Part shown: positions 38,347 through 50,457 of the stretch, one piece after another
Position numbering within the stretch: position 1 is the first letter of the stretch
Layout of the letters: each line of letters starts with the position of its first letter
NCBI GenBank assembly: GCA_036377715.1
Contig: DASUXW010000226.1
Span: 1,916-65,915, forward strand
Length of the DNA stretch: 64,000 nucleotides
Direction of reading: 5' to 3'
Source of the DNA: Gemmatimonadales bacterium
GTDB lineage: Bacteria > Gemmatimonadota > Gemmatimonadetes > Gemmatimonadales > GWC2-71-9
Notes under the pieces: generated by a model
Databases searched by the model: none
The model's input: only the letters and a program-made list of their open reading frames with translations
Told to the model about the DNA's origin: nothing
Program-made: the position numbers and the translations under genes

Positions 38347-38712
38347 ATGGTGCCCGTCTACCTCGGTCTCGGTCTCGCTGCAGGTGTGCTCTCGGGTCTC
38401 TTCGGCATCGGGGGAGGCCTGCTCATCGTACCGGGGCTCATGCTGGCGGCCAGGTTTCCCATCAAGCTGGCGCTCGGCACTTCGCTCGGCGCGCTCCTCC
38501 TGCCGGTCGGGCTCCTGGGCGCCTACACCTACTGGGAGCATGGGCACGTGGACCTCCGCGCGGCCGTACTGATCGCCGTCGGTCTCACGGGGGGCGCCTT
38601 CGTGGGTGCCCGGATGGCGCAGGCAATCCCGGCCGACACGCTCCAACGCATGTTCGCCGTGTTCATGCTGGCCATGGCCGTGCACCTCTGGATCAACGCC
38701 GGGACGGCATGA
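38347..38712 (+). CDS. TauE/SafE-family anion exporter, half-size (121 aa, about 4 TM)
   Basis: LGLAAGVLSGLFGIGGGLLIVPGLML...LGTSL has the TauE signature. It is only one of the two repeats found in the usual ~250-aa proteins. Confidence 0.75.
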   Translation: MVPVYLGLGLAAGVLSGLFGIGGGLLIVPGLMLAARFPIKLALGTSLGALLLPVGLLGAYTYWEHGHVDLRAAVLIAVGLTGGAFVGARMAQAIPADTLQRMFAVFMLAMAVHLWINAGTA

Positions 38713-39164
38713 AGATCACGAGCCCGGCCTTCGCCCCCGGCACGGCGATCCCCGCCGAGCACACCTGTCAGGGCGCCGGCACTTCGCCTCCCCTTGCGTG
38801 GAGCGAGGTGCCGGTGGGCACCCGGAGTCTCGCCGTGGTGGTGGACGATCCCGATGCGCCGCGCGGCACCTGGGTGCACTGGGTGCTGTTCAACCTCCCG
38901 TCCGACGCGGTCGAGCTCTCCCCTGCCGTTCCCCGGTCGCCCGAGCTTCCGTCGGGGGCGCGCCAGGGGCTCAACGACGGGGGTGACGTGGGGTACGGGG
39001 GCCCGTGCCCTCCGCCCGGCGGTCCGCATCGGTACTTCTTCCGGCTGTACGCACTCGACTGCACACTCAACCTCGACCCGGGCGTGAACCGCTCCGACCT
39101 CGATCACTCGATGAGGGGCCACGTTCTGGATCAGGCCGAGCTCATGGGGACATTCCAGCGATGA
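38709..39164 (+). CDS. PEBP / YbhB-YbcL family protein (Raf-kinase-inhibitor-like)
   Basis: ATGA overlap. MKITSPAFAPGTAIPAEHTCQG...SPPLAW...VVDDPDAP...WVHWVLFNLP...GYGGPCPPPGGPHRYFFRLYALD. Confidence 0.9.
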   Translation: MKITSPAFAPGTAIPAEHTCQGAGTSPPLAWSEVPVGTRSLAVVVDDPDAPRGTWVHWVLFNLPSDAVELSPAVPRSPELPSGARQGLNDGGDVGYGGPCPPPGGPHRYFFRLYALDCTLNLDPGVNRSDLDHSMRGHVLDQAELMGTFQR

Positions 39165-39703
39165 TTCAGCACACTGTTGCCGCGCTGCTCGCCTTCGCGC
39201 TCGCCGCGGCCGCCTGCTCCCGATCGCCGGGTGCCGAAGGGACCTCGCCCGAGCCGATCGCCAAGGGCACCTTCCACAACGCCGAAGGGCAGCGGATCGG
39301 GGTCGCCACCTTCACCGACAGCGGCGGGAGACCGCAGCTCGAAGTGAGCGTCTCGCAGCTCCCGCCCGGGGTCCACGGCTTCCACGTCCACGCGGTCGGC
39401 GTCTGCACCCCGCCCGACTTCAAGTCGGCGGGCGGGCACCTGAACCCCGACGACACGCACCACGGCCGACTCAACCCCGACGGACCCCACCTCGGCGACC
39501 TGCCCAATCTCGCGGTCGGCGCCAATGGCTCGGCCGACACCACCTTCGCGGTGTCGGCGGCGCTGCTCGGCTCGGGCGCGGGATCGCTCTTCCAATCCGA
39601 GGGCACGGCGCTGGTGATTCACGCCGATCCCGACGACTACCGCACCGATCCCAGCGGCAATTCGGGGGACCGGATCGCCTGCGCCGTCATCGAGCGCGGC
39701 TGA
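39161..39703 (+). CDS. sodC: Cu/Zn superoxide dismutase, lipoprotein
   Basis: ATGA overlap. Lipobox ALAAAAC. HGFHVHAVGVC...GGHLNP...GDLPNL...HADPDD...GNSGDRIACAVI. Confidence 0.93.
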   Translation: MIQHTVAALLAFALAAAACSRSPGAEGTSPEPIAKGTFHNAEGQRIGVATFTDSGGRPQLEVSVSQLPPGVHGFHVHAVGVCTPPDFKSAGGHLNPDDTHHGRLNPDGPHLGDLPNLAVGANGSADTTFAVSAALLGSGAGSLFQSEGTALVIHADPDDYRTDPSGNSGDRIACAVIERG

Positions 39704-39731: not shown

Positions 39732-40754
39732 ATGACACTGCTCAGCGCTACCGATCGCGGGCTGTTCTGCGAAGCGGGTGGATTCCACGTGGATCCGTGG
39801 AGCGCGGTCGACCGCGCGATCGTCACCCACGCGCACGGCGATCACGCGACCCGCGGCTGCGCCGCCTATCTCGCCGCCGCGCCGGGGGTGGGCGTCCTGC
39901 GCCGGCGGCTCGGGCCCGACGCACGGGTCCGCGGCATCGAGTACGGCGAGTCGCTGGACATCCACGGTGTCAGGGTCTCGCTTCACCCGGCCGGGCATAT
40001 TCTCGGCTCGGCATCGGTGCGGATCGAGCACGGCGGCGAGGTCTGGGTGGTCTCGGGCGACTACAAGACCGAGCCCGACCCCACCTGCGCGCCGTACGAG
40101 CCGATCCGCTGCCACACCTTCGTCACCGAGTGCACCTTCGGACTGCCGATCTACCGCTGGCCCGACAGCGCGCGGGTGTTCGGCGGGATCAACGAATGGT
40201 GGCGTGCCAATCAGGAGGCCGGGCGGGCCACGCTCCTCTTCGGCTATGCGCTCGGCAAGGCACAGCGGCTCATCGCCGGGCTCGATCCGACCCTCGGGCC
40301 GATCCTCACGCACGGTGCGGTCGAGAGCATGACGGCCGCCTACCGCGACGCCGGCGTGGTGCTCCCGCCCACGACGCATGTGGCGGCCGCGGGCCGGACC
40401 GCCTGGACGCGCGGGATCATCGTCGCTCCACCTTCCGCCCATGGATCCACGTGGGCCCGCCGCTTCGGACCGCGATCGACCGGCTTCGCCTCGGGCTGGA
40501 TGGCGCTTCGGGGCGAGCGGCGCCGCAGCTCCGTGGACCGCGGCTTTCCCATCTCGGACCACGTGGACTGGCCCGCGCTCCTGGACGCGATCGCGGCGAC
40601 GGGCGCCGAGCGCGTCTGGGCGACACACGGATACACCGAGTCGCTCGCGCGGTGGCTGCGCGAGCACGGCGTGGACGCGCGGGCGATCGCGACCCGCTAC
40701 CAGGGCGAGTCGGAAGAAACGGCGGAGCCCGGCGACGGTGAGCCGGCGGCGTGA
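39732..40754 (+). CDS. Ligase-associated DNA damage response exonuclease (MBL/beta-CASP fold)
   Basis: FCEAGGFHVDPW...IVTHAHGDHA...VSGDYK...ECTFGLPIYRWP...SDHVDWPALL. It is the first gene of the four-family cassette. Confidence 0.85.
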   Translation: MTLLSATDRGLFCEAGGFHVDPWSAVDRAIVTHAHGDHATRGCAAYLAAAPGVGVLRRRLGPDARVRGIEYGESLDIHGVRVSLHPAGHILGSASVRIEHGGEVWVVSGDYKTEPDPTCAPYEPIRCHTFVTECTFGLPIYRWPDSARVFGGINEWWRANQEAGRATLLFGYALGKAQRLIAGLDPTLGPILTHGAVESMTAAYRDAGVVLPPTTHVAAAGRTAWTRGIIVAPPSAHGSTWARRFGPRSTGFASGWMALRGERRRSSVDRGFPISDHVDWPALLDAIAATGAERVWATHGYTESLARWLREHGVDARAIATRYQGESEETAEPGDGEPAA

Positions 40755-42274
40755 GGACGTTCGCCCGACTCTTCCGCACCCTGGAGGAGACTGCCGAGGC
40801 CGACGGAAAGCTGGCCGCCCTGCTGGCCTACGTTCGAGCCGTCCCGCCGAGCGACGCGGCCTGGGCCGTCTACCTGCTGAGCGGCCGGCGGCCCCGGCGG
40901 CTGGTGAGTCCCGCCTGCCTGCGCGCGTGGGCCATGGAGGCGGCCGGCATTGGTGAGTGGCTGTTCGAGGAGAGCCGCCGCGCGGCGGGTGACCTGGCCG
41001 AGACGATCACGCTGCTCGTATCCGATCCCGCCGAGCCGGCGGAGCGACCGCTCGCCTGGTGGATGGAGCAGCGGCTGCTGCGCCTCTCGGGCGAGGACGA
41101 GGCCATCCGGCATTCGGAGATGCTGGCGAGCTGGAGCGAGCTCGGCCGGGACGAGCGTTTCGTGTGGAACAAGCTCGTCCTCGGCGCCTTCCGGCCGCCG
41201 GTCGCGGTGCGGATTCTGGTGCGCGCGCTGGCCGAGGTGAGCGGCCTCGCGCCCGGGACCATCGACCACCGGCTGGCCGAGCCGTGGGAGCCGTCTCCCG
41301 AATGGATGGAGCGCCTGCTCGCTCCCGCCACCAGAGACGTGGAGGTGAGCCGGCCGTACCCATTTCAGCCCGCGGCCGCGCTCGCGGGCGCTCCTGCGAG
41401 TGCCGTGCTCGGCCCGGCCGGCGCGTGGATCGCGGAGTGGCTCTGGGTGGGCCGGCGCGCGCAGCTCGTGCGGCGCGCGGGGCGGACCTTTCTCTGGTCG
41501 CGGGAGCCGGAGCTGCTCACGTCGCGCTTTCCCGAGATCGAGGCGGCGGCCGCCTTCCTTCCGGACGGCTCCGTGGTGGACGGCGAGCTGGTGACGACGC
41601 AGGGCAAGCCGGCGGCGCTCCTCGCGTACGATCTGCTCGAGGAGCTCGGCCGCGACCTCCGCGACCGGCCCCTGAGCGAGCGGCGTGACCGGCTCGCGGC
41701 GCTCATCGCGGGTACGCCGGCAGCGGCCGACAGGCTCGTCCTCTCACCCGTCCTCGAGGCGGCGGACTGGGACGCGGTGGCTGCGCTTCGGGCGCGAGCG
41801 AGGGCCGAGGGCGCCGGCGGGGTGATCCTCAAGCGCCGTGCGGGTCGGTATGGCGGCGCACCGGACGACTGGCTGGCCTGGCGGCTCGAGCCCCTCTCGG
41901 TGGACGCGGTGCTGATGTACGCCCGGCCGGGTGCCGGCGGCCCGTCCGGGCTCGACGCCGAATACACCTTCGGCGTGTGGGACGGCGACGCCCTGGTGCC
42001 GCTGGCCCGCACCGGGTCGGGACTGAGTGAGTCCGAAGGCCGGCGGCTCGACAGTTTCGTCCGCCGCAACACGCTCGAGAAGTTCGGACCGGTGCGCACG
42101 GTGCGGCCCGCGCTCGTGTTCGAGCTGGCGTTCGACCGCGTGGTGCGCTCGGCCCGGCACAAGGCGGGCGTCGCGGTCCGTGGGCCGCGAATCGTCGGCT
42201 GGCGGACCGACCGGCAGCCGGAGCAGGCCGACACGCTCGAGCGGGTGCGAGCGCTGATCGGGCAACCGGAGTAA
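40751..42274 (+). CDS. ATP-dependent DNA ligase homologue of the ligase-associated damage-response cassette; motif I lysine absent (probable pseudo-enzyme)
   Basis: GTGA overlap. The family N-terminus LAALLAYVRAVPPSDAAWAVYLLSG, VDGELV, LLAYDLLE and the OB tail FGPVRTVRPALVFELAFD are present. Motif I reads EWLWVGRR instead of EWKWDGxR. Confidence 0.8.
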   Translation: MRTFARLFRTLEETAEADGKLAALLAYVRAVPPSDAAWAVYLLSGRRPRRLVSPACLRAWAMEAAGIGEWLFEESRRAAGDLAETITLLVSDPAEPAERPLAWWMEQRLLRLSGEDEAIRHSEMLASWSELGRDERFVWNKLVLGAFRPPVAVRILVRALAEVSGLAPGTIDHRLAEPWEPSPEWMERLLAPATRDVEVSRPYPFQPAAALAGAPASAVLGPAGAWIAEWLWVGRRAQLVRRAGRTFLWSREPELLTSRFPEIEAAAAFLPDGSVVDGELVTTQGKPAALLAYDLLEELGRDLRDRPLSERRDRLAALIAGTPAAADRLVLSPVLEAADWDAVAALRARARAEGAGGVILKRRAGRYGGAPDDWLAWRLEPLSVDAVLMYARPGAGGPSGLDAEYTFGVWDGDALVPLARTGSGLSESEGRRLDSFVRRNTLEKFGPVRTVRPALVFELAFDRVVRSARHKAGVAVRGPRIVGWRTDRQPEQADTLERVRALIGQPE

Positions 42275-42283
42275 GGTTTGCTC

Positions 42284-43105
42284 ATGGCGAATTTCATCTG
42301 CATCACCTGCGGCACCCAGTACCCCGAGTCGGCGCTGCCACCCGACCAGTGCCTCATCTGCGCCGAGGAGCGGCAGTACGTCGGCTGGGACGGTCAGCGC
42401 TGGACCACGCTCGACGAGCTGCGCCGGGACCACACCAACCGGCTCGCGCCCGAGGGTCCGGCGCTGGTCGGGATCGGCACCGAGCCGAGGCTCGCGATCG
42501 GGCAGCGCGCGCTGCACCTCCGGACCGCCCAGGGCGGGTTTCTCTGGGACTGCATCAGCCTGGTGGACGATGCCACGGTCGCGGCGCTCCACGCGCTCGG
42601 CGGCATCGCCGGGATCGCCATCTCCCACCCGCACTTCTACTCGTCCATGATCGAGTGGAGCCGCGCGTTCGGCGGCGTTCCGATCTATCTGCACGCGGCC
42701 GATGCGCAGTGGGTCGTCCATCACGACCGCGCGATCGTGTTCTGGGACGGCGATGCCCGCCAGGTGGCGCCCGGCGTCACCCTGGTCCACTGCGGCGGCC
42801 ACTTCGCGGGCAGCACCGTGCTGCACTGGGCGGACGGCGCGGACGGCGGCGGGGCGATCCTGAGCGGCGACACCATCATGGTGGGCGAAGACCGCCGCAC
42901 CGCCGGCTTCATGTACAGCTATCCCAATTACATCCCGCTGGACGCCCGCAGCGTCGAGCGTATCGGCGCCGCGCTCGAGCCCTACGAGTTCGAGCAGGTC
43001 TACGGCGGCTGGTTTCGTCGCAACATCCTGTCGGAAGCGAAACAGGCGGTGCGCTACTCGGTGCGCCGCTACGTACACGCGGTGTCGGGCCGTGGCGGGA
43101 GCTGA
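42284..43105 (+). CDS. MBL-fold protein with N-terminal CxxC-X15-CxxC zinc ribbon
   Basis: MANFICITCGTQYPES...CLICAEERQYVGWDGQRWTT. The metal motif is reduced to ISHPHFY, and CGGHFAGS is also present. The ATG is 10 nt after the ligase stop, and the gene's end overlaps the helicase start. Confidence 0.8.
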   Translation: MANFICITCGTQYPESALPPDQCLICAEERQYVGWDGQRWTTLDELRRDHTNRLAPEGPALVGIGTEPRLAIGQRALHLRTAQGGFLWDCISLVDDATVAALHALGGIAGIAISHPHFYSSMIEWSRAFGGVPIYLHAADAQWVVHHDRAIVFWDGDARQVAPGVTLVHCGGHFAGSTVLHWADGADGGGAILSGDTIMVGEDRRTAGFMYSYPNYIPLDARSVERIGAALEPYEFEQVYGGWFRRNILSEAKQAVRYSVRRYVHAVSGRGGS

Positions 43106-45767
43106 GGGCGGACGGCCGCCCCGGGGCGGTGGGGCGCTCGCGGTGGACCTGCGGCGCGCGCGGGCCGCGCGTCAGCGGGCGGAGCGCGCGGCTCGCCGGG
43201 TCGCGGCGCCCGCCCCCGCGCCCGAGCCTCGCTATCCGGTCGCCTGCGGTGACCGCGAGCCGCTCGAGTGCATCCGCGAATGGTTCCGGCTGCATGGCTG
43301 GCGCCCGTTCCCCTTCCAGGAAGAGGTCTGGCGCGCCTACCTGAGCGGCCAGAGCGGTTTGCTCCATGCCGCCACCGGCACGGGCAAGACGTACGCGGCC
43401 TGGCTTGGCCCCGTCCTCGAGTGGCTGCGGGACTACCCCCTGCGGCCGCGCCGCCGGGAAGCCGCCCCGCCGCTCCGGGTTCTCTGGATCACGCCGCTGC
43501 GCGCCCTCGCCGCCGACACCGAGGCCGCGCTCCGCGCGCCGATCGAGGATCTGGGTCTCCCCTGGACCGTCGAATCACGAACCGGCGATACGCCGGCCAG
43601 GATCCGCGCACGCCAGCGGGAGCGCCTGCCGACGGCGCTGGTCACGACGCCCGAGAGCCTGGAGCTGCTGCTCACGCGCGAGGACGCACCGTCGCTGTTC
43701 GACCACCTCGAGCTCGTGGTGGTGGACGAATGGCACGAGCTTCTCGCGTCCAAGCGCGGGGTGCAGACGGAGCTCGCGCTCGCGCGGCTGCGCCATTTTC
43801 GGCCGGCGCTCCGGATCCTCGGCCTCTCGGCGACGCTCGGCAACCTCGAGCAGGCGCGCGACACGCTGGTGGGGGTGGACGCGGCCGGGGTGCCGCGGCC
43901 GGGCCGCATCATCCAGGGGCTCATCCCCAAGGCGCTCGAGGTGGAGGCACTCATCCCCGAGACGATGGAGCGGTTCCCCTGGGCGGGACAGATCGGACTG
44001 CGCCTGCTCCCCGAAGTCGTGCGCGCCATGGACCAGGCGGCGAGCACGCTGGTCTTCACCAATACGCGGGCCACGGCGGAGATCTGGTACCAGGCCCTGC
44101 TCGCCGCCCGGCCGGACTGGGCCGGCACGATGGCGCTGCACCACGGCTCGCTCGACCGTAAGACGCGCGAGTGGGTGGAGGACGGCCTCCGCGACGGCCG
44201 GCTCCGCTGCGTGGTCTGCACCTCGACCCTGGACCTCGGCGTGGACTTCACGCCGGTGGACCGCGTCCTCCAGATCGGTAGCCCCAAGAGCGTGGGCCGC
44301 CTGGTCCAGCGCGCGGGACGAAGCGGCCACCAGCCGGGAGCGGTGAGCCGGCTGACCTGCGTTCCGACCAACGCGCTCGACCTGGTAGACGTCGCCGCGG
44401 CGCGGGACGCCCTGGCCGCCGGCCGGATCGAGGCCCGCCGCCCGGTGGAGCGCCCGCTCGACCTGCTGGCCCAGCACGCGGTGACCGTCGCGATGGGCGG
44501 CGGGTTCGTCGCCGACGAGCTCTACGACGAGGTGCGCACCACGTACGCGTATCGCGACCTCACGCCGGCGGAGTGGAGCTGGGTGCTCGATTTCACCACC
44601 CGCGGCGGTCCGGCGCTTCGCGCCTATCCCGAGTACAACAAGGTGGAAACGAGGGACGGTCGCTACGTGGTCACCGACCGGCTCGTGGGCATGCGCCACC
44701 GCATGTCCATCGGCACCATCGTGAGCGAAAGCGCGATGCAGGTCCGGTTTCTCCGCGGACGCGCGCTCGGCTCGGTCGAGGAGAGCTTCATCGCCCGGCT
44801 TCGGCCGGGCGATCACTTCACCTTCGCCGGGCGCACGCTGCAGTTCGTGCGGGTGCGCGGAATGACGGCGTACGTGCGAAAGTCGGCCCGGCCCACCTCG
44901 GTGGTGCCGCACTGGTCGGGCGTGCGGATGCCGATTTCGCCCCCGCTCGCGGCGGGGGTTCGAGCCAAGCTCGACGAGGCCCGGCGCGGGATCTACGCCG
45001 GCGCCGAGATGGAAGCGGTGCGGCCGATCCTCGAGCTGCAGGCCGCGTGGTCCCGGCTCCCCGCCGCTGACGAGCTGCTGGTCGAGCGCGTGCAGACGCG
45101 CGAGGGGCACCACCTGTTCTTCTATCCGGTCGAAGGCCGGCTGGTGCACGAGGGGCTCGCCGCGCTGTTCGCTTATCGCCTCGCCCAGCTGGGGCCGATC
45201 TCGTTCACCCTCGCGGCCAACGACTACGGCCTCGAGCTCCTCTCGGCGGAGCCCGCGCCGGTGGAGGAGGCGATCGAGGCCGGTCTGTTCTCGCCCGAGC
45301 ACCTGCTGCACGACATCCCGGCGAGTCTCAACGCGGCGGAGCTCGCCCGCCGGCAGTTCCGGGAGATTGCACGGGTGGCGGGGCTCATCTTCCAGGGGTA
45401 CCCCGGCGCCGCCAAGTCGGTGAAGCAGGTGCAGGCCTCGAGCGAGCTGCTGTACGACGTCTTCGCCCGCCATGACCCCGACAACCTGCTCCTGTTCCAG
45501 GCGCACCGGGAAGTGCTCGAGCGCCAGCTGGAGCAGAGCCGGCTCGGCGCGGCACTCGCCCGCATCGCCGCCGGACCGATTGCGCTGGTGAACGTCGAGC
45601 GCCCGACGCCGCTCGCCTTCCCGCTGCTGGTGGACCGCGCCCGCGAGCAGGTCAGTTCCGAGCGCCTCCCCGAGCGCATCCGCCGCATGGCCGCCCCGCT
45701 CGAGCGCGCCGCGGGGAGTGCGCGGTTCGCACGCGGGCGGAGCCGCGGCTTCCGGAGCGGCTCGTGA
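43092..45767 (+). CDS. Ligase-associated DEXH-box helicase (Lhr-like)
   Basis: FPFQEEVWRAYLSGQSGLLHAATGTGKTYAAW is Walker A and VVVDEWHEL is the DExH box. SATLGN and QRAGRSGH are also present. It has the family's long C-terminal domain. The N-terminal ~50 Arg/Ala-rich residues make the start uncertain. Confidence 0.88.
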   Translation: MAGAEGGRPPRGGGALAVDLRRARAARQRAERAARRVAAPAPAPEPRYPVACGDREPLECIREWFRLHGWRPFPFQEEVWRAYLSGQSGLLHAATGTGKTYAAWLGPVLEWLRDYPLRPRRREAAPPLRVLWITPLRALAADTEAALRAPIEDLGLPWTVESRTGDTPARIRARQRERLPTALVTTPESLELLLTREDAPSLFDHLELVVVDEWHELLASKRGVQTELALARLRHFRPALRILGLSATLGNLEQARDTLVGVDAAGVPRPGRIIQGLIPKALEVEALIPETMERFPWAGQIGLRLLPEVVRAMDQAASTLVFTNTRATAEIWYQALLAARPDWAGTMALHHGSLDRKTREWVEDGLRDGRLRCVVCTSTLDLGVDFTPVDRVLQIGSPKSVGRLVQRAGRSGHQPGAVSRLTCVPTNALDLVDVAAARDALAAGRIEARRPVERPLDLLAQHAVTVAMGGGFVADELYDEVRTTYAYRDLTPAEWSWVLDFTTRGGPALRAYPEYNKVETRDGRYVVTDRLVGMRHRMSIGTIVSESAMQVRFLRGRALGSVEESFIARLRPGDHFTFAGRTLQFVRVRGMTAYVRKSARPTSVVPHWSGVRMPISPPLAAGVRAKLDEARRGIYAGAEMEAVRPILELQAAWSRLPAADELLVERVQTREGHHLFFYPVEGRLVHEGLAALFAYRLAQLGPISFTLAANDYGLELLSAEPAPVEEAIEAGLFSPEHLLHDIPASLNAAELARRQFREIARVAGLIFQGYPGAAKSVKQVQASSELLYDVFARHDPDNLLLFQAHREVLERQLEQSRLGAALARIAAGPIALVNVERPTPLAFPLLVDRAREQVSSERLPERIRRMAAPLERAAGSARFARGRSRGFRSGS

Positions 45768-46429
45768 CCGACGCCCGGGTGTGCCTCGCGGGCGAGGAGG
45801 TGGTGCTCCTTCCCGAGCGGGCGCTCTTCTGGCCCCGCACCGATACGCTGATCGTGGCCGACCTCCACTGGGGCAAGGCCGCGACGTTTCGGGCGGCCGG
45901 CATCCCGATCCCGGCGGGCTCCACCAGCGATGACCTGGCCCGGCTGGATGCCGCTCTCCTCAGGACCGACGCCGGCCGCCTCGTGGTCCTGGGCGACCTG
46001 TTTCACGCCCGGGCGGGTCGCGTGGCCACCGCGACGCTCGCGGCACTCAGGCGCTGGCGGTCACTGCGCGCCAGCCTCGAGATCACGCTGGTCCGCGGCA
46101 ACCACGACCGCCACGCCGGCGATCCTCCGGCCGACCTGCGCATCAACTGCTGCAACGCGCCCGCGTTCGTTCCGCCGTTCGTGCTCCGCCACGAGCCCTC
46201 CGTCTCGGACGCGGGCTACACGCTCGCCGGCCACGTCCATCCCGGGCTCGTGCTGCGCGGCCCGGGACTGCAGCACGAGCGCCTCCCCTGTTTTCTTGTG
46301 AGGGATCGGCTCGCCGTGCTGCCGGCCTTCACCAGCTTCACCGGCTTCGGGATCGTGACGCCCGGCCCGGCCGAGCGCGCGTTCGTGGTGGCGGATGCGG
46401 AGGTGATCGAGGTCCGCGCCGGGGGCTGA
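45764..46429 (+). CDS. pdeM: Ligase-associated DNA damage response phosphoesterase
   Basis: GTGA overlap. LIVADLHWGKAATFRAAGIPIP, GDLFH, VRGNHD, and HEP...GHVHPG calcineurin-like motifs. Confidence 0.85.
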   Translation: MTDARVCLAGEEVVLLPERALFWPRTDTLIVADLHWGKAATFRAAGIPIPAGSTSDDLARLDAALLRTDAGRLVVLGDLFHARAGRVATATLAALRRWRSLRASLEITLVRGNHDRHAGDPPADLRINCCNAPAFVPPFVLRHEPSVSDAGYTLAGHVHPGLVLRGPGLQHERLPCFLVRDRLAVLPAFTSFTGFGIVTPGPAERAFVVADAEVIEVRAGG

Positions 46430-48068: not shown

Positions 48069-49412
48069 ATGTCCGATCTCCTCGCCGCGCGCAGCCAGAT
48101 GGCCGTCTCGCTCGGCTTCCACATCGTGTTCGCCGTGCTGGGCATCGGCATGCCGGCGCTGATGGTGGTCGCCGAGCGCCGATACCGGAAGACCGGCGAC
48201 CCGATCTACCTCGATCTGGCCAAGCGCTGGGCCAAGGGCACCGCCATTCTCTTCGCCGTGGGGGCGGTGTCCGGCACCGTCCTCTCGTTCGAGCTCGGCC
48301 TGCTCTGGCCCTCGTTCATGGAGTTCGCCGGGCCCGTGATCGGCATGCCCTTCTCCCTCGAAGGCTTCGCATTCTTCCTCGAGGCGATCTTCATCGGCGT
48401 CTACCTGTACGGCTGGGACCGGATCTCGCCGCGGGCGCACCTGCTGGCCGGCGTGATGGTGGCCGTGAGCGGGGCGGCGTCGGGGATCTTCGTCGTCATC
48501 GCCAACGCCTGGATGAACGCGCCCACGGGGTTCGATATCGTCAACGGGCGGGTGGCGAACGTGGACCCGATCGCCGGGATGCTCAACCCGATGGCGTTCC
48601 AGCAGACCCTCCACATGACCCTCGCGTCCTACGCCGCCACCGGGTTCGCCGTCGGGGGCATTCACGCGATTCTGCTGCTCGTCGACCGGCAGAACGCATT
48701 CCACCGGCGCGCGCTGGCCATCTCCCTGCTGGTGGGCGCGCCGGCGGCCGTGCTCCAGCCGATCTCGGGCGACCTGAGTGCCCGCGCCGTGGCGGAGAAC
48801 CAGCCGGCCAAGCTCGCCGCGGCGGAGTCCCACTTCGTCACCGCTCGCCGGGTACCGCTCGTGATCGGCGGCATCCCCGACGCCGACCGGCAGGAGACCC
48901 GCTACGCCGTGCGCATTCCGGGCGGGCTCTCGTTCCTCGCCTTTCACGACGTGAATGCCGAGGTAAAGGGCCTCATGGAGTTTCCCCGCGCCGACTGGCC
49001 CAACGTGCTGATCGTCCACACCGCGTTCCAGCTCATGGTGGGGCTCGGCACCTTCCTCGCCCTGGTGTCGCTGTGGGTGGGTTTCCTCGCCTGGCGGCGG
49101 CGGGACCTGGCCGATCACACCTGGCTCCTGCGGGTGCTCGCGGTGGCGACGCCGATGGGCTTCATCGCGATCGAGGCGGGGTGGACGGTGACGGAAGTGG
49201 GCCGCCAGCCCTGGGTGGTCTACAACATCCAGCGCACCGCCGACGCGGTAACGCCGATGCCCGGGCTCATCGTCCCGTTCCTGGGCTTCACGCTGCTCTA
49301 CTGCTTCCTGGGGGCCATCGTGGTGTGGCTGCTCTACCGACAGATCATCCGAAGCCCGCGGCCCACCGAGTGGACCCGGGTGTACGCCCCGCCGAGCGTT
49401 CACCATGCCTGA
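48069..49412 (+). CDS. cydA: Cytochrome bd-type quinol oxidase subunit I (short Q-loop, CIO-like)
   Basis: LLAARSQMAVSLGFHIVFAVLGIGMP..., GWTVTEVGRQPWVV. At 447 aa it belongs to the short-loop class. Confidence 0.93.
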   Translation: MSDLLAARSQMAVSLGFHIVFAVLGIGMPALMVVAERRYRKTGDPIYLDLAKRWAKGTAILFAVGAVSGTVLSFELGLLWPSFMEFAGPVIGMPFSLEGFAFFLEAIFIGVYLYGWDRISPRAHLLAGVMVAVSGAASGIFVVIANAWMNAPTGFDIVNGRVANVDPIAGMLNPMAFQQTLHMTLASYAATGFAVGGIHAILLLVDRQNAFHRRALAISLLVGAPAAVLQPISGDLSARAVAENQPAKLAAAESHFVTARRVPLVIGGIPDADRQETRYAVRIPGGLSFLAFHDVNAEVKGLMEFPRADWPNVLIVHTAFQLMVGLGTFLALVSLWVGFLAWRRRDLADHTWLLRVLAVATPMGFIAIEAGWTVTEVGRQPWVVYNIQRTADAVTPMPGLIVPFLGFTLLYCFLGAIVVWLLYRQIIRSPRPTEWTRVYAPPSVHHA

Positions 49413-50457
49413 GCTCGGCCTGCCCGAGGTCGTCGCCGCCATCCTCGCGCTTTCCCTCACGATCTACGTGCTCTTCGGAGGCGCGGACTTCGGCGGCGGG
49501 GTGTGGGACCTGCTGGCCGGCGGCCCCCGGCGCGACCGGCAGCGCGAGGTGATCGGCCATGCCATCGGTCCGATCTGGGAGGCCAATCACGTCTGGCTCA
49601 TCCTGGTGATCGTGCTGACGTTCACCTGCTTTCCGCCCGTGTTCGCGCGGATGGGTACGCTGCTGCACATCCCCCTCACCCTCATGCTGTTCGGGATCGT
49701 CCTCCGCGGGTCGGCGTTCACCTTCCGGACCTACGACGACGAGCACGACGCGGTGCAGCGGCGCTGGGGCCGCGTCTTCGCCGTCGCGAGCCTCCTGACG
49801 CCGGTGCTCCTGGGCGCCTGCATCGGGGCGGTCGCGGCGGACCGCCTGGGTCCGCTCGATGGGCCGGCGACGTTCACCGAACGGTACCTGGCGCCCTGGC
49901 TCACCCCGTTCAGCCTGGCCGTGGGCCTCCTCGCGCTGGCACTGTTCGCGCTGCTGGCCGCCGTCTTTCTCACCCTGGAGACCGACGACCCCGAGCTGGT
50001 CGAGGATTTCCGGCGGCGCGCGCTCTGGTCGGCCGTTGCGGTCTTCGTCGTCGCCTTCGGTGCCCTCCTCCTCGCGCCCGGGCACGCGCCCCTCGTCAGC
50101 GCCGGCCTGCTCGGCTCGCGGTGGGCGCTACCGTTCCACGTGGCCACCGGCGTGGCCGCCGTCGCGGTACTGGCGGCGCTCTGGTGGCGGCGCTACCATC
50201 TGGCGCGGGTGGCCGTCGGCGCGCAAGTCTCCCTGATCCTCTGGGGGTGGGCGGTGTCCCAGTACCCCTACCTGGTTCCGCCCGACCTGACCATCCGCGG
50301 CGCCGCCGCGCCCGATGCGACCCTGCGGGCGGTGCTCGTCGCCCTGGCGCTCGGCGCCGTGGTGCTGCTGCCTTCGCTGTGGTACATGTTCCGCGTCTTC
50401 AAGGCGGGGCCGTCGCACTCGGTGCGACGCCTGCCCCCGGGAGGACTGGTCCGATGA
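49405..50457 (+). CDS. cydB: Cytochrome bd-type quinol oxidase subunit II
   Basis: 8-nt overlap with cydA. LSLTIYVLFGGADFGGGVWDLL...IGPIWEANHVWLI. Confidence 0.9.
   Translation: MPELGLPEVVAAILALSLTIYVLFGGADFGGGVWDLLAGGPRRDRQREVIGHAIGPIWEANHVWLILVIVLTFTCFPPVFARMGTLLHIPLTLMLFGIVLRGSAFTFRTYDDEHDAVQRRWGRVFAVASLLTPVLLGACIGAVAADRLGPLDGPATFTERYLAPWLTPFSLAVGLLALALFALLAAVFLTLETDDPELVEDFRRRALWSAVAVFVVAFGALLLAPGHAPLVSAGLLGSRWALPFHVATGVAAVAVLAALWWRRYHLARVAVGAQVSLILWGWAVSQYPYLVPPDLTIRGAAAPDATLRAVLVALALGAVVLLPSLWYMFRVFKAGPSHSVRRLPPGGLVR

Follow-up and report, generated by a model that had tools for sequence, protein, structure and literature searches.

A predicted pseudo-ligase form of Lig B under purifying selection in the Exo/Lig/Lhr-Core/PdeM cassette of Gemmatimonadales

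Introduction

All characterised DNA ligases of the Lig B group are autonomous enzymes, and the role of the pathway encoded by the surrounding gene cluster is unknown (PMC7470946, PMC10140301). The nuclease of this cluster, Exo, is predicted to be SNM1B/Apollo-like, and bacterial ATP (AD) ligases are always accompanied by LigA (PMC7470946). In eukaryotes, catalytically dead Dnl4/Lig4 proteins still support end joining structurally (PMC3694833, PMC11754673), and human Lig4 binds the SNM1-family nuclease Artemis (PDB 3w1g). Here we describe a Lig B homologue of 507 amino acids (aa) encoded in one 64-kb stretch of DNA (hereafter the window; contig DASUXW010000226.1, G+C content about 72%) from the metagenome-assembled genome (MAG) of a Gemmatimonadales soil bacterium. 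The gene belongs to a cassette that also encodes Exo, a Lhr-Core-type helicase and the endonuclease PdeM. A previous reading of the sequence alone had noticed that its motif I lacks the adenylylated lysine and had proposed that a pseudo-ligase is retained in the operon.

The analyses below predict with high confidence that the window protein is inactive as a ligase, and purifying selection on it clearly persists. We consider it likely that selection maintains this pseudo-Lig B, unable to ligate, in the Exo/Lig/Lhr-Core/PdeM module for a non-catalytic contribution. No DNA-ligase pseudoenzyme or lysine-less ligase homologue was found in the open-access literature, where ‘pseudoligase’ occurs only in papers on ubiquitin E3 enzymes; a natural pseudo-ligase form of Lig B therefore appears to be new to the searchable part of that literature.

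Results

The window gene encodes a Lig B-type ligase homologue

Against TIGR04120, which models the ligase of the ‘ligase-associated DNA damage response’ cassette, the protein scores 423.9 bits, above the cutoff of 400; it falls short of NF006701, a stricter related equivalog (489.8 against 543); each of the two profiles matches it in two stretches. The DNA-binding domain (DBD, PF04675), the nucleotidyltransferase domain (NTase, PF01068) and the OB domain (PF04679) all score above the Pfam gathering cutoffs. Its neighbours match TIGR04122 (Exo), TIGR04121 (helicase) and TIGR04123 (PdeM), with one additional open reading frame (ORF) between the ligase and helicase genes. By profile and by context, the ORF at 40751–42274 is thus a Lig B-type ATP-dependent DNA ligase homologue of the Exo/Lig/Lhr-Core/PdeM cassette. 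The identical NCBI entry is titled ‘MAG TPA: ATP-dependent DNA ligase [Gemmatimonadales bacterium]’. Annotation pipelines label proteins of this kind ‘DNA ligase-1’ or ‘ATP-dependent DNA ligase’, which is a pitfall for their users.

The catalytic centre and the nick-engaging elements are lost

Seven sequences of the window clade (five distinct lineages and two near-identical sequences, described below) were compared with 66 full-length relatives in a 73-sequence alignment; further alignments contained 18 sequences and 122 sequences, the last with 115 full-length relatives. The KxDGxR signature that motif I of a functional ATP-dependent ligase requires is absent. Nucleotides 41435–41452 read GAG TGG CTC TGG GTG GGC, placing CTC at 41441 and GTG at 41447. 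In a phmmer alignment with solved archaeal ligases, the K and D of their ‘eiKyDG’ face L231 and V233. The first of these columns holds K in 65 of the 66 relatives and L, Q, Q, R and Q in the five clade lineages (position 231); the second holds D in 64 relatives and V, T, T, T and I in the clade (position 233). The whole window protein contains only six lysines, none of them near motif I.

The losses extend through the remaining motifs. The motif IV Glu (column 398) is E in 65 of the 66 relatives and G, G, G, G and A at position 356 of the clade. Motif V, GRRRGDWWKWK in relatives, has become A--PDDWLAWR, with a 2-aa deletion in the loop between motifs IV and V; its two Lys columns (420 and 422) are K in 65 of the 66 relatives, and in the clade the first is A, V or S (K376 is replaced by A, A, V, S and A) and the second R or Q. 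Neither the motif IV Glu nor the double Lys of motif V, both required for ligation, is therefore present. In the OB domain, the required motif VI pattern RFPRxxRxRxDK reads RGPRIVGWRTDR: the RFPRxxRWRTDK of relatives has changed to R[G/A]PR...D[R] in the clade, in which position 478 is G, A, A, A and A and the Arg residues are kept. An ATP-dependent ligase that has lost the Lys of motif I, the Glu of motif IV and both Lys of motif V is unable to perform three-step ligation. Because all of these are missing, the window protein is predicted, with high confidence, to be inactive as a ligase.

Other parts of the nucleotide pocket are preserved. The DGE of motif III and the aromatic residue of motif IIIa are both present, VDGELV and AYDLL being invariant, and the clade also keeps the motif I Gly and Arg, the motif IIIa Tyr and the motif IV Lys without exception.

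Between motifs III and IIIa the clade carries an in-frame deletion of 25 aa. Columns 301–325 are gapped in all seven clade sequences and filled in all 66 relatives, in which the consensus is xxPLPFAQLQRRIGRKxLGRKILxE. Human LIG1 numbering was taken from the full-length chain 7qnz_A by exact segment matches: E621 is the motif III Glu, F635 the Phe of QPFQVL, R641 lies six residues further on, and F872 is the Phe of LRFPR. PLPFAQLQRR of Lig B corresponds to QPFQVLTTR of LIG1, and RFPR to RFPR. By this correspondence the deletion removes the equivalents of F635 and R641, and Gly or Ala at position 478 replaces that of F872. F635 and F872 are the Phe residues with which human LIG1 engages the nick, F635 being the nick-wedging one; since both equivalents are gone, nick-engaging elements have been lost besides the adenylylation chemistry. 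The net charge of the NTase domain has in addition shifted from about +1.7 to −2.2, a loss of some four net positive charges.

These results confirm most of the sequence-only reading and correct it in places. The 507-aa ORF exists as the cassette ligase, its motif I codons are as had been claimed and differ from the canonical ones at multiple nucleotides, and alignment anchored on profiles and structures places L231 and V233 in the K and D columns with no other lysine there. The N-terminal domain (PF04675) and motif III, with its invariant Asp and Glu, are retained as described. LLAYDLLE, in contrast, had been taken for motif IV and is motif IIIa. What had been called the motif V region does show KWK altered to AWR, but that stretch holds motifs IV and V both. 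A segment is indeed missing, although it measures exactly 25 aa between motifs III and IIIa plus 2 aa in the IV–V loop rather than about 30 aa. The losses of the motif IV Glu, of the motif VI Phe and Lys, and of the nick-wedging Phe segment go beyond what had been reported.

An AlphaFold2 model built from the 73-sequence alignment has a three-domain fold with a mean predicted local distance difference test (pLDDT) score of 89.8; confidence is lower for residues 251–260 and 281–290 (76) and for 391–400 (56). In Foldseek searches the model matched archaeal three-domain ligases at E values of about 1e-33 and the DNA-encircling human LIG1 with a TM score of 0.66.

Five diverged lineages share the losses and remain under purifying selection

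The clade comprises the window's own 90% identity cluster and four further clusters (P0002–P0005), 84, 82, 78 and 75% identical to it, each 507 aa long and found in Logan and ENA samples; the next match is 60% identical and 530–545 aa long. The window's cluster has 19 members, mostly from Joint Genome Institute (JGI) metagenomes and on contigs of up to 84 kb, and EWLWVG is present in every full-length member read. Clade contigs share the gene order TauE, PEBP, Cu/Zn superoxide dismutase (SOD), Exo, the 507-aa ligase and ORF273. Five lineages from independent metagenomes, spanning 75–100% identity, thus agree in losses, deletion, length and synteny. A scan of metagenome contigs with the window protein returned, among the matches listed, only canonical relatives of at most 49% identity, and the genome contigs scanned included neither the window species nor a clade member.

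The possibility that the altered ligase is a sequencing, assembly or gene-calling artefact of one MAG, raised by the errors that high-GC MAGs can carry, is refuted by these independent assemblies and has practically no probability left, since the same substitutions and in-frame deletion occur in NCBI, JGI, ENA and Logan sequences of 75–100% identity and the differences from the canonical motif span several nucleotides.

Within one 17,047-bp JGI contig, the gene of a member of the window's 90% cluster is found in two pieces, P0131 (404 aa) and P0128 (92 aa), which together make up nearly the whole protein. Either the assembly is in error there or this population carries a frameshift or stop.

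Selection was measured pairwise by the Nei-Gojobori method on ungapped 507-codon alignments, with bootstrap 95% confidence intervals (CIs). The ligase genes have synonymous distances (dS) of 0.41–0.76 and ratios of nonsynonymous to synonymous distance (ω) of 0.19–0.29 (CI 0.16–0.37). By domain, ω is 0.18–0.38 for the DBD, 0.16–0.35 for the NTase (CIs up to 0.50) and 0.14–0.21 for the OB domain. At the same loci, the control genes gave 0.12–0.17 (Exo) and 0.14–0.21 (ORF275), so that the ligase value is about 1.5–2 times that of its neighbours. The ratio of the nonsynonymous distance (dN) of the ligase to that of Exo is 1.25–1.96 within the clade versus 0.93 in the canonical pair L007/L008. Compared with L007, the closest canonical locus, Exo is 73%, ORF275 80%, the helicase 87% and PdeM 78% identical, and the ligase only 58–61%. 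The G+C content at third codon positions (GC3) of the ligase gene, 0.90, is similar to that of the neighbouring genes. From the ω values, the dN ratios and the identities to L007 it follows that constraint on the ligase has weakened about two-fold, that changes accumulated in a burst along the stem of the clade, and that purifying selection clearly persists.

The pattern of change within the protein points the same way. Canonical relatives share 276 columns with at least 95% conservation. All five lineages keep 169 of these (61%); a further 24 have switched to one new residue throughout the clade, 68 vary within it and 15 fall in deletions. The old catalytic positions (231, 233, 356, 376 and 478) all fall in the variable class, which argues for lost constraint at those sites and not for a new catalytic residue. 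The gene thus joins lost catalytic motifs to an intact ORF and purifying selection across five diverged lineages, the combination that defines a pseudoenzyme. The earlier proposal of a pseudo-ligase retained in the operon is borne out by these five lineages (75–100% identical, ω 0.19–0.29). Its suggestion that orthologues be examined gave a mixed outcome: the losses are clade-wide and the gene is under purifying selection, but the particular replacements are not fixed (K to L, Q or R; D to V, T or I).

Predicted inactive Lig B forms occur in many other lineages

Of the 115 nearest full-length relatives, 7 have substitutions at essential positions. P0024, P0059, P0067 and P0054 form a Gemmatimonadales subclade with 88–91% mutual identity, lengths of 532–534 aa and a full cassette; their motif I keeps the Lys and has Asp replaced by N, A, A and H, and two of them also have R or N for the second Lys of motif V. 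Four JGI samples (L168–L171) contain the identical P0024 sequence, within a complete cassette. This subclade may represent an earlier stage of the same erosion. A further protein, P0019 (543 aa, L167 519–2150), reads EWTWGG, with K replaced by T and D by G, and is without the 25-aa deletion; its motif IIIa Tyr is Ser, its first motif V Lys is Met and its PLPF is PLPL. It is flanked by Exo and ORF275 homologues and is not sister to the window clade in a neighbour-joining (NJ) tree. Two Lig B proteins, in a Mucilaginibacter MAG (L058 5527–7140) and at L151 10001–11593, have EWKWEG and EWKWNG, with the Asp replaced, and are otherwise canonical with motifs IV and V intact.

A profile search was then made of 1.84 billion 50%-identity representatives, and the best 150 of about 2,300 with E ≤ 1e-30 were taken. 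Among 149 of these best representatives, aligned and with their motif frames read, 46 are without two or more of six core catalytic residues. The motif I Lys is missing from 23, where its place is taken by L, H, W, T, I, M, C, Q, D, A, R, N, S or E. Misalignment was considered as the cause of these many cases and rejected by direct reading of the motif frames. Inactive representatives were sampled repeatedly: one cluster unites 23 sequences from four sources, and a different representative lies on a 2.7-Mb contig. All but two of 45 dead representatives (43/45) are closer to a canonical Gemmatimonadales ligase than to the window clade, and the 25-aa deletion is found in none of those dead representatives; the window clade is therefore an independent and unusually thorough case. 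A single ancient family of inactive paralogues is not supported, given this proximity to the canonical ligase, the differing replacements and the unshared deletion. An NJ tree does group most dead representatives, maybe by long-branch attraction, and does not fix the exact number of independent losses.

By abundance, inactive forms are rare. The motif I Lys is present in all 160 non-clade loci recovered in the genome and metagenome scans; for P0366, searched for a second diverged inactive clade, 0 of the 113 nearest clusters are altered, and nothing lies between its own cluster (at least 90% identity) and about 45%. Their excess among 50% representatives arises because each inactive form stands alone on a long branch.

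In the 46 inactive representatives the three domains have fared differently. DBD identity is 0.334, versus 0.343 in active representatives, and 82% of the conserved DBD columns are kept, whereas from active to inactive representatives identity falls from 0.458 to 0.383 in the NTase and from 0.569 to 0.430 in the OB domain. The DBD is the best-retained domain in inactive lineages, and its constraint is unchanged. None of the 46 (0%) keeps the motif VI Phe, 15% keep the Glu of motif IV and 22% an equivalent of F635; 24 of them have lost the Glu of motif III, 15 motif IIIa and 9 the Lys of motif IV.

Putatively dead ligases directly follow intact Exo genes in the contexts examined

In each of the four contexts examined, the dead ligase gene directly follows an intact Exo gene. 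Three of them, L172, L173 and L174, with GC contents of 0.50, 0.41 and 0.61, have no Lhr helicase or PdeM gene within 10 kb and thus carry two-gene modules (Table 1). Their Exo proteins are 47–58% identical to the window Exo and retain HxHxDH, HPAGH, SGDY, SDHxDW and THG. The pseudo-ligase phenomenon is neither unique to the window gene nor tied to the four-gene cassette. Adjacency of Exo and ligase genes also holds in nearly all canonical loci. The L172 pair adjoins a Tn5-type transposase and a PIN/DUF2281 toxin-antitoxin pair.

The partner genes of the window cassette are intact

Features of the locus are listed in Table 1. All catalytic motifs of Exo (HAHGDH, HPAGH, SGDY, SDHVDW and THG) are found, as are GTGKT, DEWH, SAT and QRAGR in the helicase and DLHWGK, GDLFH, GNHD and GHVH in PdeM, in agreement with the earlier statement that the partners keep their motifs. 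The cassette genes overlap or abut throughout: the Exo stop and the ligase start share the 4 bp GTGA, and the helicase and pdeM genes overlap as well. A tblastn search found no second ligase homologue in the 64 kb of the window, and no ligase or Ku domain is present among 20 further large GC3-supported window ORFs.

Table 1. Coordinates of the window locus and of three two-gene modules
Feature	Position	Strand	Basis or remark
TauE-family membrane protein, PEBP/YbhB-family protein and Cu/Zn SOD	38347–39703	+	directly upstream of Exo
Exo, ligase-associated metallo-β-lactamase (MBL)/β-CASP exonuclease, 340 aa	39732–40754	+	TIGR04122, 475 bits (cutoff 325)
Putative pseudo-Lig B, ATP-dependent DNA ligase homologue, 507 aa	40751–42274	+	TIGR04120, Pfam, alignments, AlphaFold2 model
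N-terminal DNA-binding domain, aa 1–200	40751–41350	+	PF04675 matches aa 2–161
Motif I remnant EWLWVGRR, aa 229–236	41435–41458	+	Lys to Leu, Asp to Val; Gly and Arg kept
Motif III VDGELV, aa 276–281, kept	41576–41593	+	Asp and Glu invariant
Deletion junction G285/K286	41603–41608	+	25-aa in-frame deletion between motifs III and IIIa
Motif IIIa LLAYDLLE, aa 290–297, kept	41618–41641	+	alignment
Motif IV remnant GGVILK, aa 356–361	41816–41833	+	AEGLMLK in relatives; Glu to Gly, Lys kept
Motif V remnant WLAWR, aa 374–378	41870–41884	+	WWKWK in relatives; both Lys gone
Motif VI remnant VRGPRIVGWRTDR, aa 476–488	42176–42214	+	Phe to Gly, Lys to Arg
ORF275, MBL-like ORF of 273–275 aa, conserved, non-ligase	42278–43105	+	between ligase and helicase genes
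Lhr-Core-type DEXH helicase, 891 aa, intact	43092–45767	+	TIGR04121, 1117 bits (cutoff 850)
PdeM/MPE metallophosphoesterase endonuclease, 221 aa, intact	45764–46429	+	TIGR04123, 219 bits (cutoff 150)
Hydrophobic ORF, 512 aa	46456–47994	−	downstream of PdeM; no Pfam match
Cytochrome bd oxidase subunits I and II	48069–50457	+	after the 512-aa ORF
Two-gene Exo + inactive Lig B module, L172	8854–11599
Two-gene Exo + inactive Lig B module, L173	8988–11584
Two-gene Exo + inactive Lig B module, L174	9013–11569

The ORF between the ligase and helicase genes turns the four-gene cassette into one of five genes in this Gemmatimonadales group; its N terminus contains a CxxC (MPNFICITCG). Neither Pfam nor NCBIfam matches it, and its similarity in the PDB, to β-CASP proteins, is only faint; its family has thousands of homologues, labelled ‘glyoxylase-like’ MBL hydrolases by JGI. 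Homologues of 273–280 aa also adjoin canonical ligases (L007 9646–10458, L008 9683–10486, L168 11667–12509), and ORF275 is absent from the cassettes of other taxa among the loci compared. A role of ORF275 as a substitute ligase was rejected, since it is MBL-like only and also stands beside these canonical ligases; for the latter reason it does not explain the loss of the ligase residues either.

Upstream of Exo, the order TauE, PEBP and SOD also occurs in L001, L004, L005 and L168–L170, which include clade loci and canonical relatives; this synteny could hint at a tie between the cassette and oxidative stress. The bd oxidase genes follow the cassette in L168 and L169 as well.

Discussion

The window protein has been maintained although it is predicted to be inactive, and a non-catalytic role exerted through the retained scaffold is the most economical explanation; we therefore regard it as probable that pseudo-Lig B is a selected, non-ligating component of the Exo/Lig/Lhr-Core/PdeM module. 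Its partner is most likely the SNM1-like Exo nuclease, because the adjacency of the two genes is invariant, the two are translationally coupled and the constraint on the DBD is kept. The pseudo-ligase would then partner the SNM1/Apollo-like Exo in a structural or targeting role, as it perhaps does Lhr-Core and PdeM in the window operon, and final nick sealing would be left to the housekeeping NAD+-dependent LigA. The sequence-only reading had offered a DNA-end binder or a scaffold. The former role appears somewhat weakened, given that both nick-engaging Phe residues and about four net positive charges of the NTase domain are gone; the latter is plausible.

Several points weigh against this explanation. 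The inactivity of the ligase is deduced from its sequence, and the physical interaction between Exo and the ligase protein is one that we infer. LigA or another ATP ligase is assumed for this organism, of whose genome 64 kb are visible. The alignment behind the AlphaFold2 model consists mostly of canonical ligases, and the model is thus not independent proof that the deleted protein folds. The elevated ω relative to the neighbouring genes indicates that part of the ligase protein may be drifting, and one member of the window's cluster has its gene split into 404 and 92 aa. Most inactive lineages elsewhere are isolated long branches, and some of them could be genes en route to loss. Finally, the residues that contact adenosine (motif I Arg, motif III Asp and Glu, motif IIIa Tyr, motif IV Lys) are invariant in the clade, from which some nucleotide-related function may follow.

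The last point suggests an alternative in which the NTase domain is a non-catalytic module that binds or senses adenosine, AMP, ATP or NAD and regulates the nuclease and helicase. The division of the pocket fits such a sensor, with the positions generally assigned to adenine and ribose contacts (motif I Arg, motif III Glu, motif IIIa Tyr, motif IV Lys) kept in the clade and the phosphate, metal and nucleophile positions all lost. In the 46 other inactive representatives, however, the adenosine-contact positions erode, so nucleotide binding is no general requirement, and the residues kept in the clade may be merely structural. We consider this alternative unlikely.

The same invariant residues (motif III DGE, motif I Arg, motif IIIa Tyr, motif IV Lys) would also suit a protein that transfers nucleotides or seals DNA by non-canonical chemistry, using another nucleophile or acting only on pre-adenylylated (AppDNA) nicks. 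Chlorella virus ligase mutants without the motif I Lys still seal pre-adenylylated nicks, which counts for such chemistry. Likewise, some pseudoenzymes may have ‘migrated’ catalytic amino acids elsewhere, according to PMC10211241. In the window clade, however, the residues for steps 2 and 3 have gone too (motif I Asp, motif IV Glu, motif V Lys pair, nick Phe pair); the Lys position (L, Q or R) and the Asp position (V, T or I) are variable and chemically inert; and neither the six lysines, none close to motif I, nor the 24 columns fixed to a new residue supply a new invariant nucleophile. Non-canonical sealing accordingly seems quite improbable.

It might instead be supposed that the protein does nothing, and that its ORF persists as a decaying remnant for want of time or through translational coupling in an operon whose genes overlap or abut. 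The raised ω and dN(lig)/dN(exo) of the ligase, the split cluster member and the many other dead lineages on isolated long branches would all be expected of such a remnant. Yet a 507-codon frame has stayed intact in five lineages at dS of 0.41–0.76, the upper confidence limit of ω does not exceed 0.37, and of the 276 columns conserved in the family the clade has kept 169 and shifted 24 to one new residue; selection for translation only would not conserve the amino-acid sequence. Decay is therefore very unlikely.

A non-catalytic role of pseudo-Lig B thus remains the preferred explanation, and its repetition bears on the family as a whole. If the same switch has been made repeatedly in other bacteria, canonical Lig B would have such a non-catalytic role too. 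We tentatively extend this to the proposal, which may well prove wrong, that Lig B is an obligate partner of Exo that loads or positions it on damaged DNA through the DBD, with a ligase chemistry that can be spared and that dozens of bacterial lineages have given up independently. Were this true, the window clade would be the most thoroughly stripped example of discarded ligase chemistry, and the Exo-Lig(-Lhr-MPE) pathway would be organised around a ligase-shaped scaffold rather than around a sealing step. The pairing of dead ligases with intact Exo in the contexts examined argues that the ligase protein contributes more than sealing.

There are also practical consequences. About a third of the best 149 cluster representatives nearest the family seem unable to ligate. 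Unless the motif I column is inspected, genome-based inference of ligase repertoires and the mining of metagenomes for new ligases will go astray.

Canonical Lig B is one of the closest known systems. It shares with the window protein the DBD-NTase-OB architecture, a passing TIGR04120 score, the site between Exo and Lhr-Core and partner genes that are 73–87% identical. Characterised Lig B proteins, however, are autonomous nick-sealing enzymes (PMC7470946), whereas the window protein is without the motif I, IV, V and VI residues and the 25-aa NTase element. The Thermococcus and Pyrococcus ligases and human LIG1 have the fold predicted for it and are homologous in sequence over all three domains, but the window protein has neither the K568-type chemistry nor the equivalents of F635 and R641, which are deleted, and carries Gly or Ala in place of F872. 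Like pseudoenzymes as defined in PMC10211241, it is a conserved homologue devoid of catalytic motifs. Dead Dnl4/LIG4 alleles and the LIG4-Artemis (SNM1C) complex offer a functional parallel, a ligase scaffold used without ligation and a three-domain ligase joined to an SNM1-family nuclease; in the loci of this study each dead ligase gene adjoins that of an SNM1-like Exo, the putative partner. The dead Dnl4/LIG4 proteins are engineered point mutants in eukaryotic non-homologous end joining, whereas the inactivation predicted for the window ligase is natural, affects multiple sites and has been stable in evolution.

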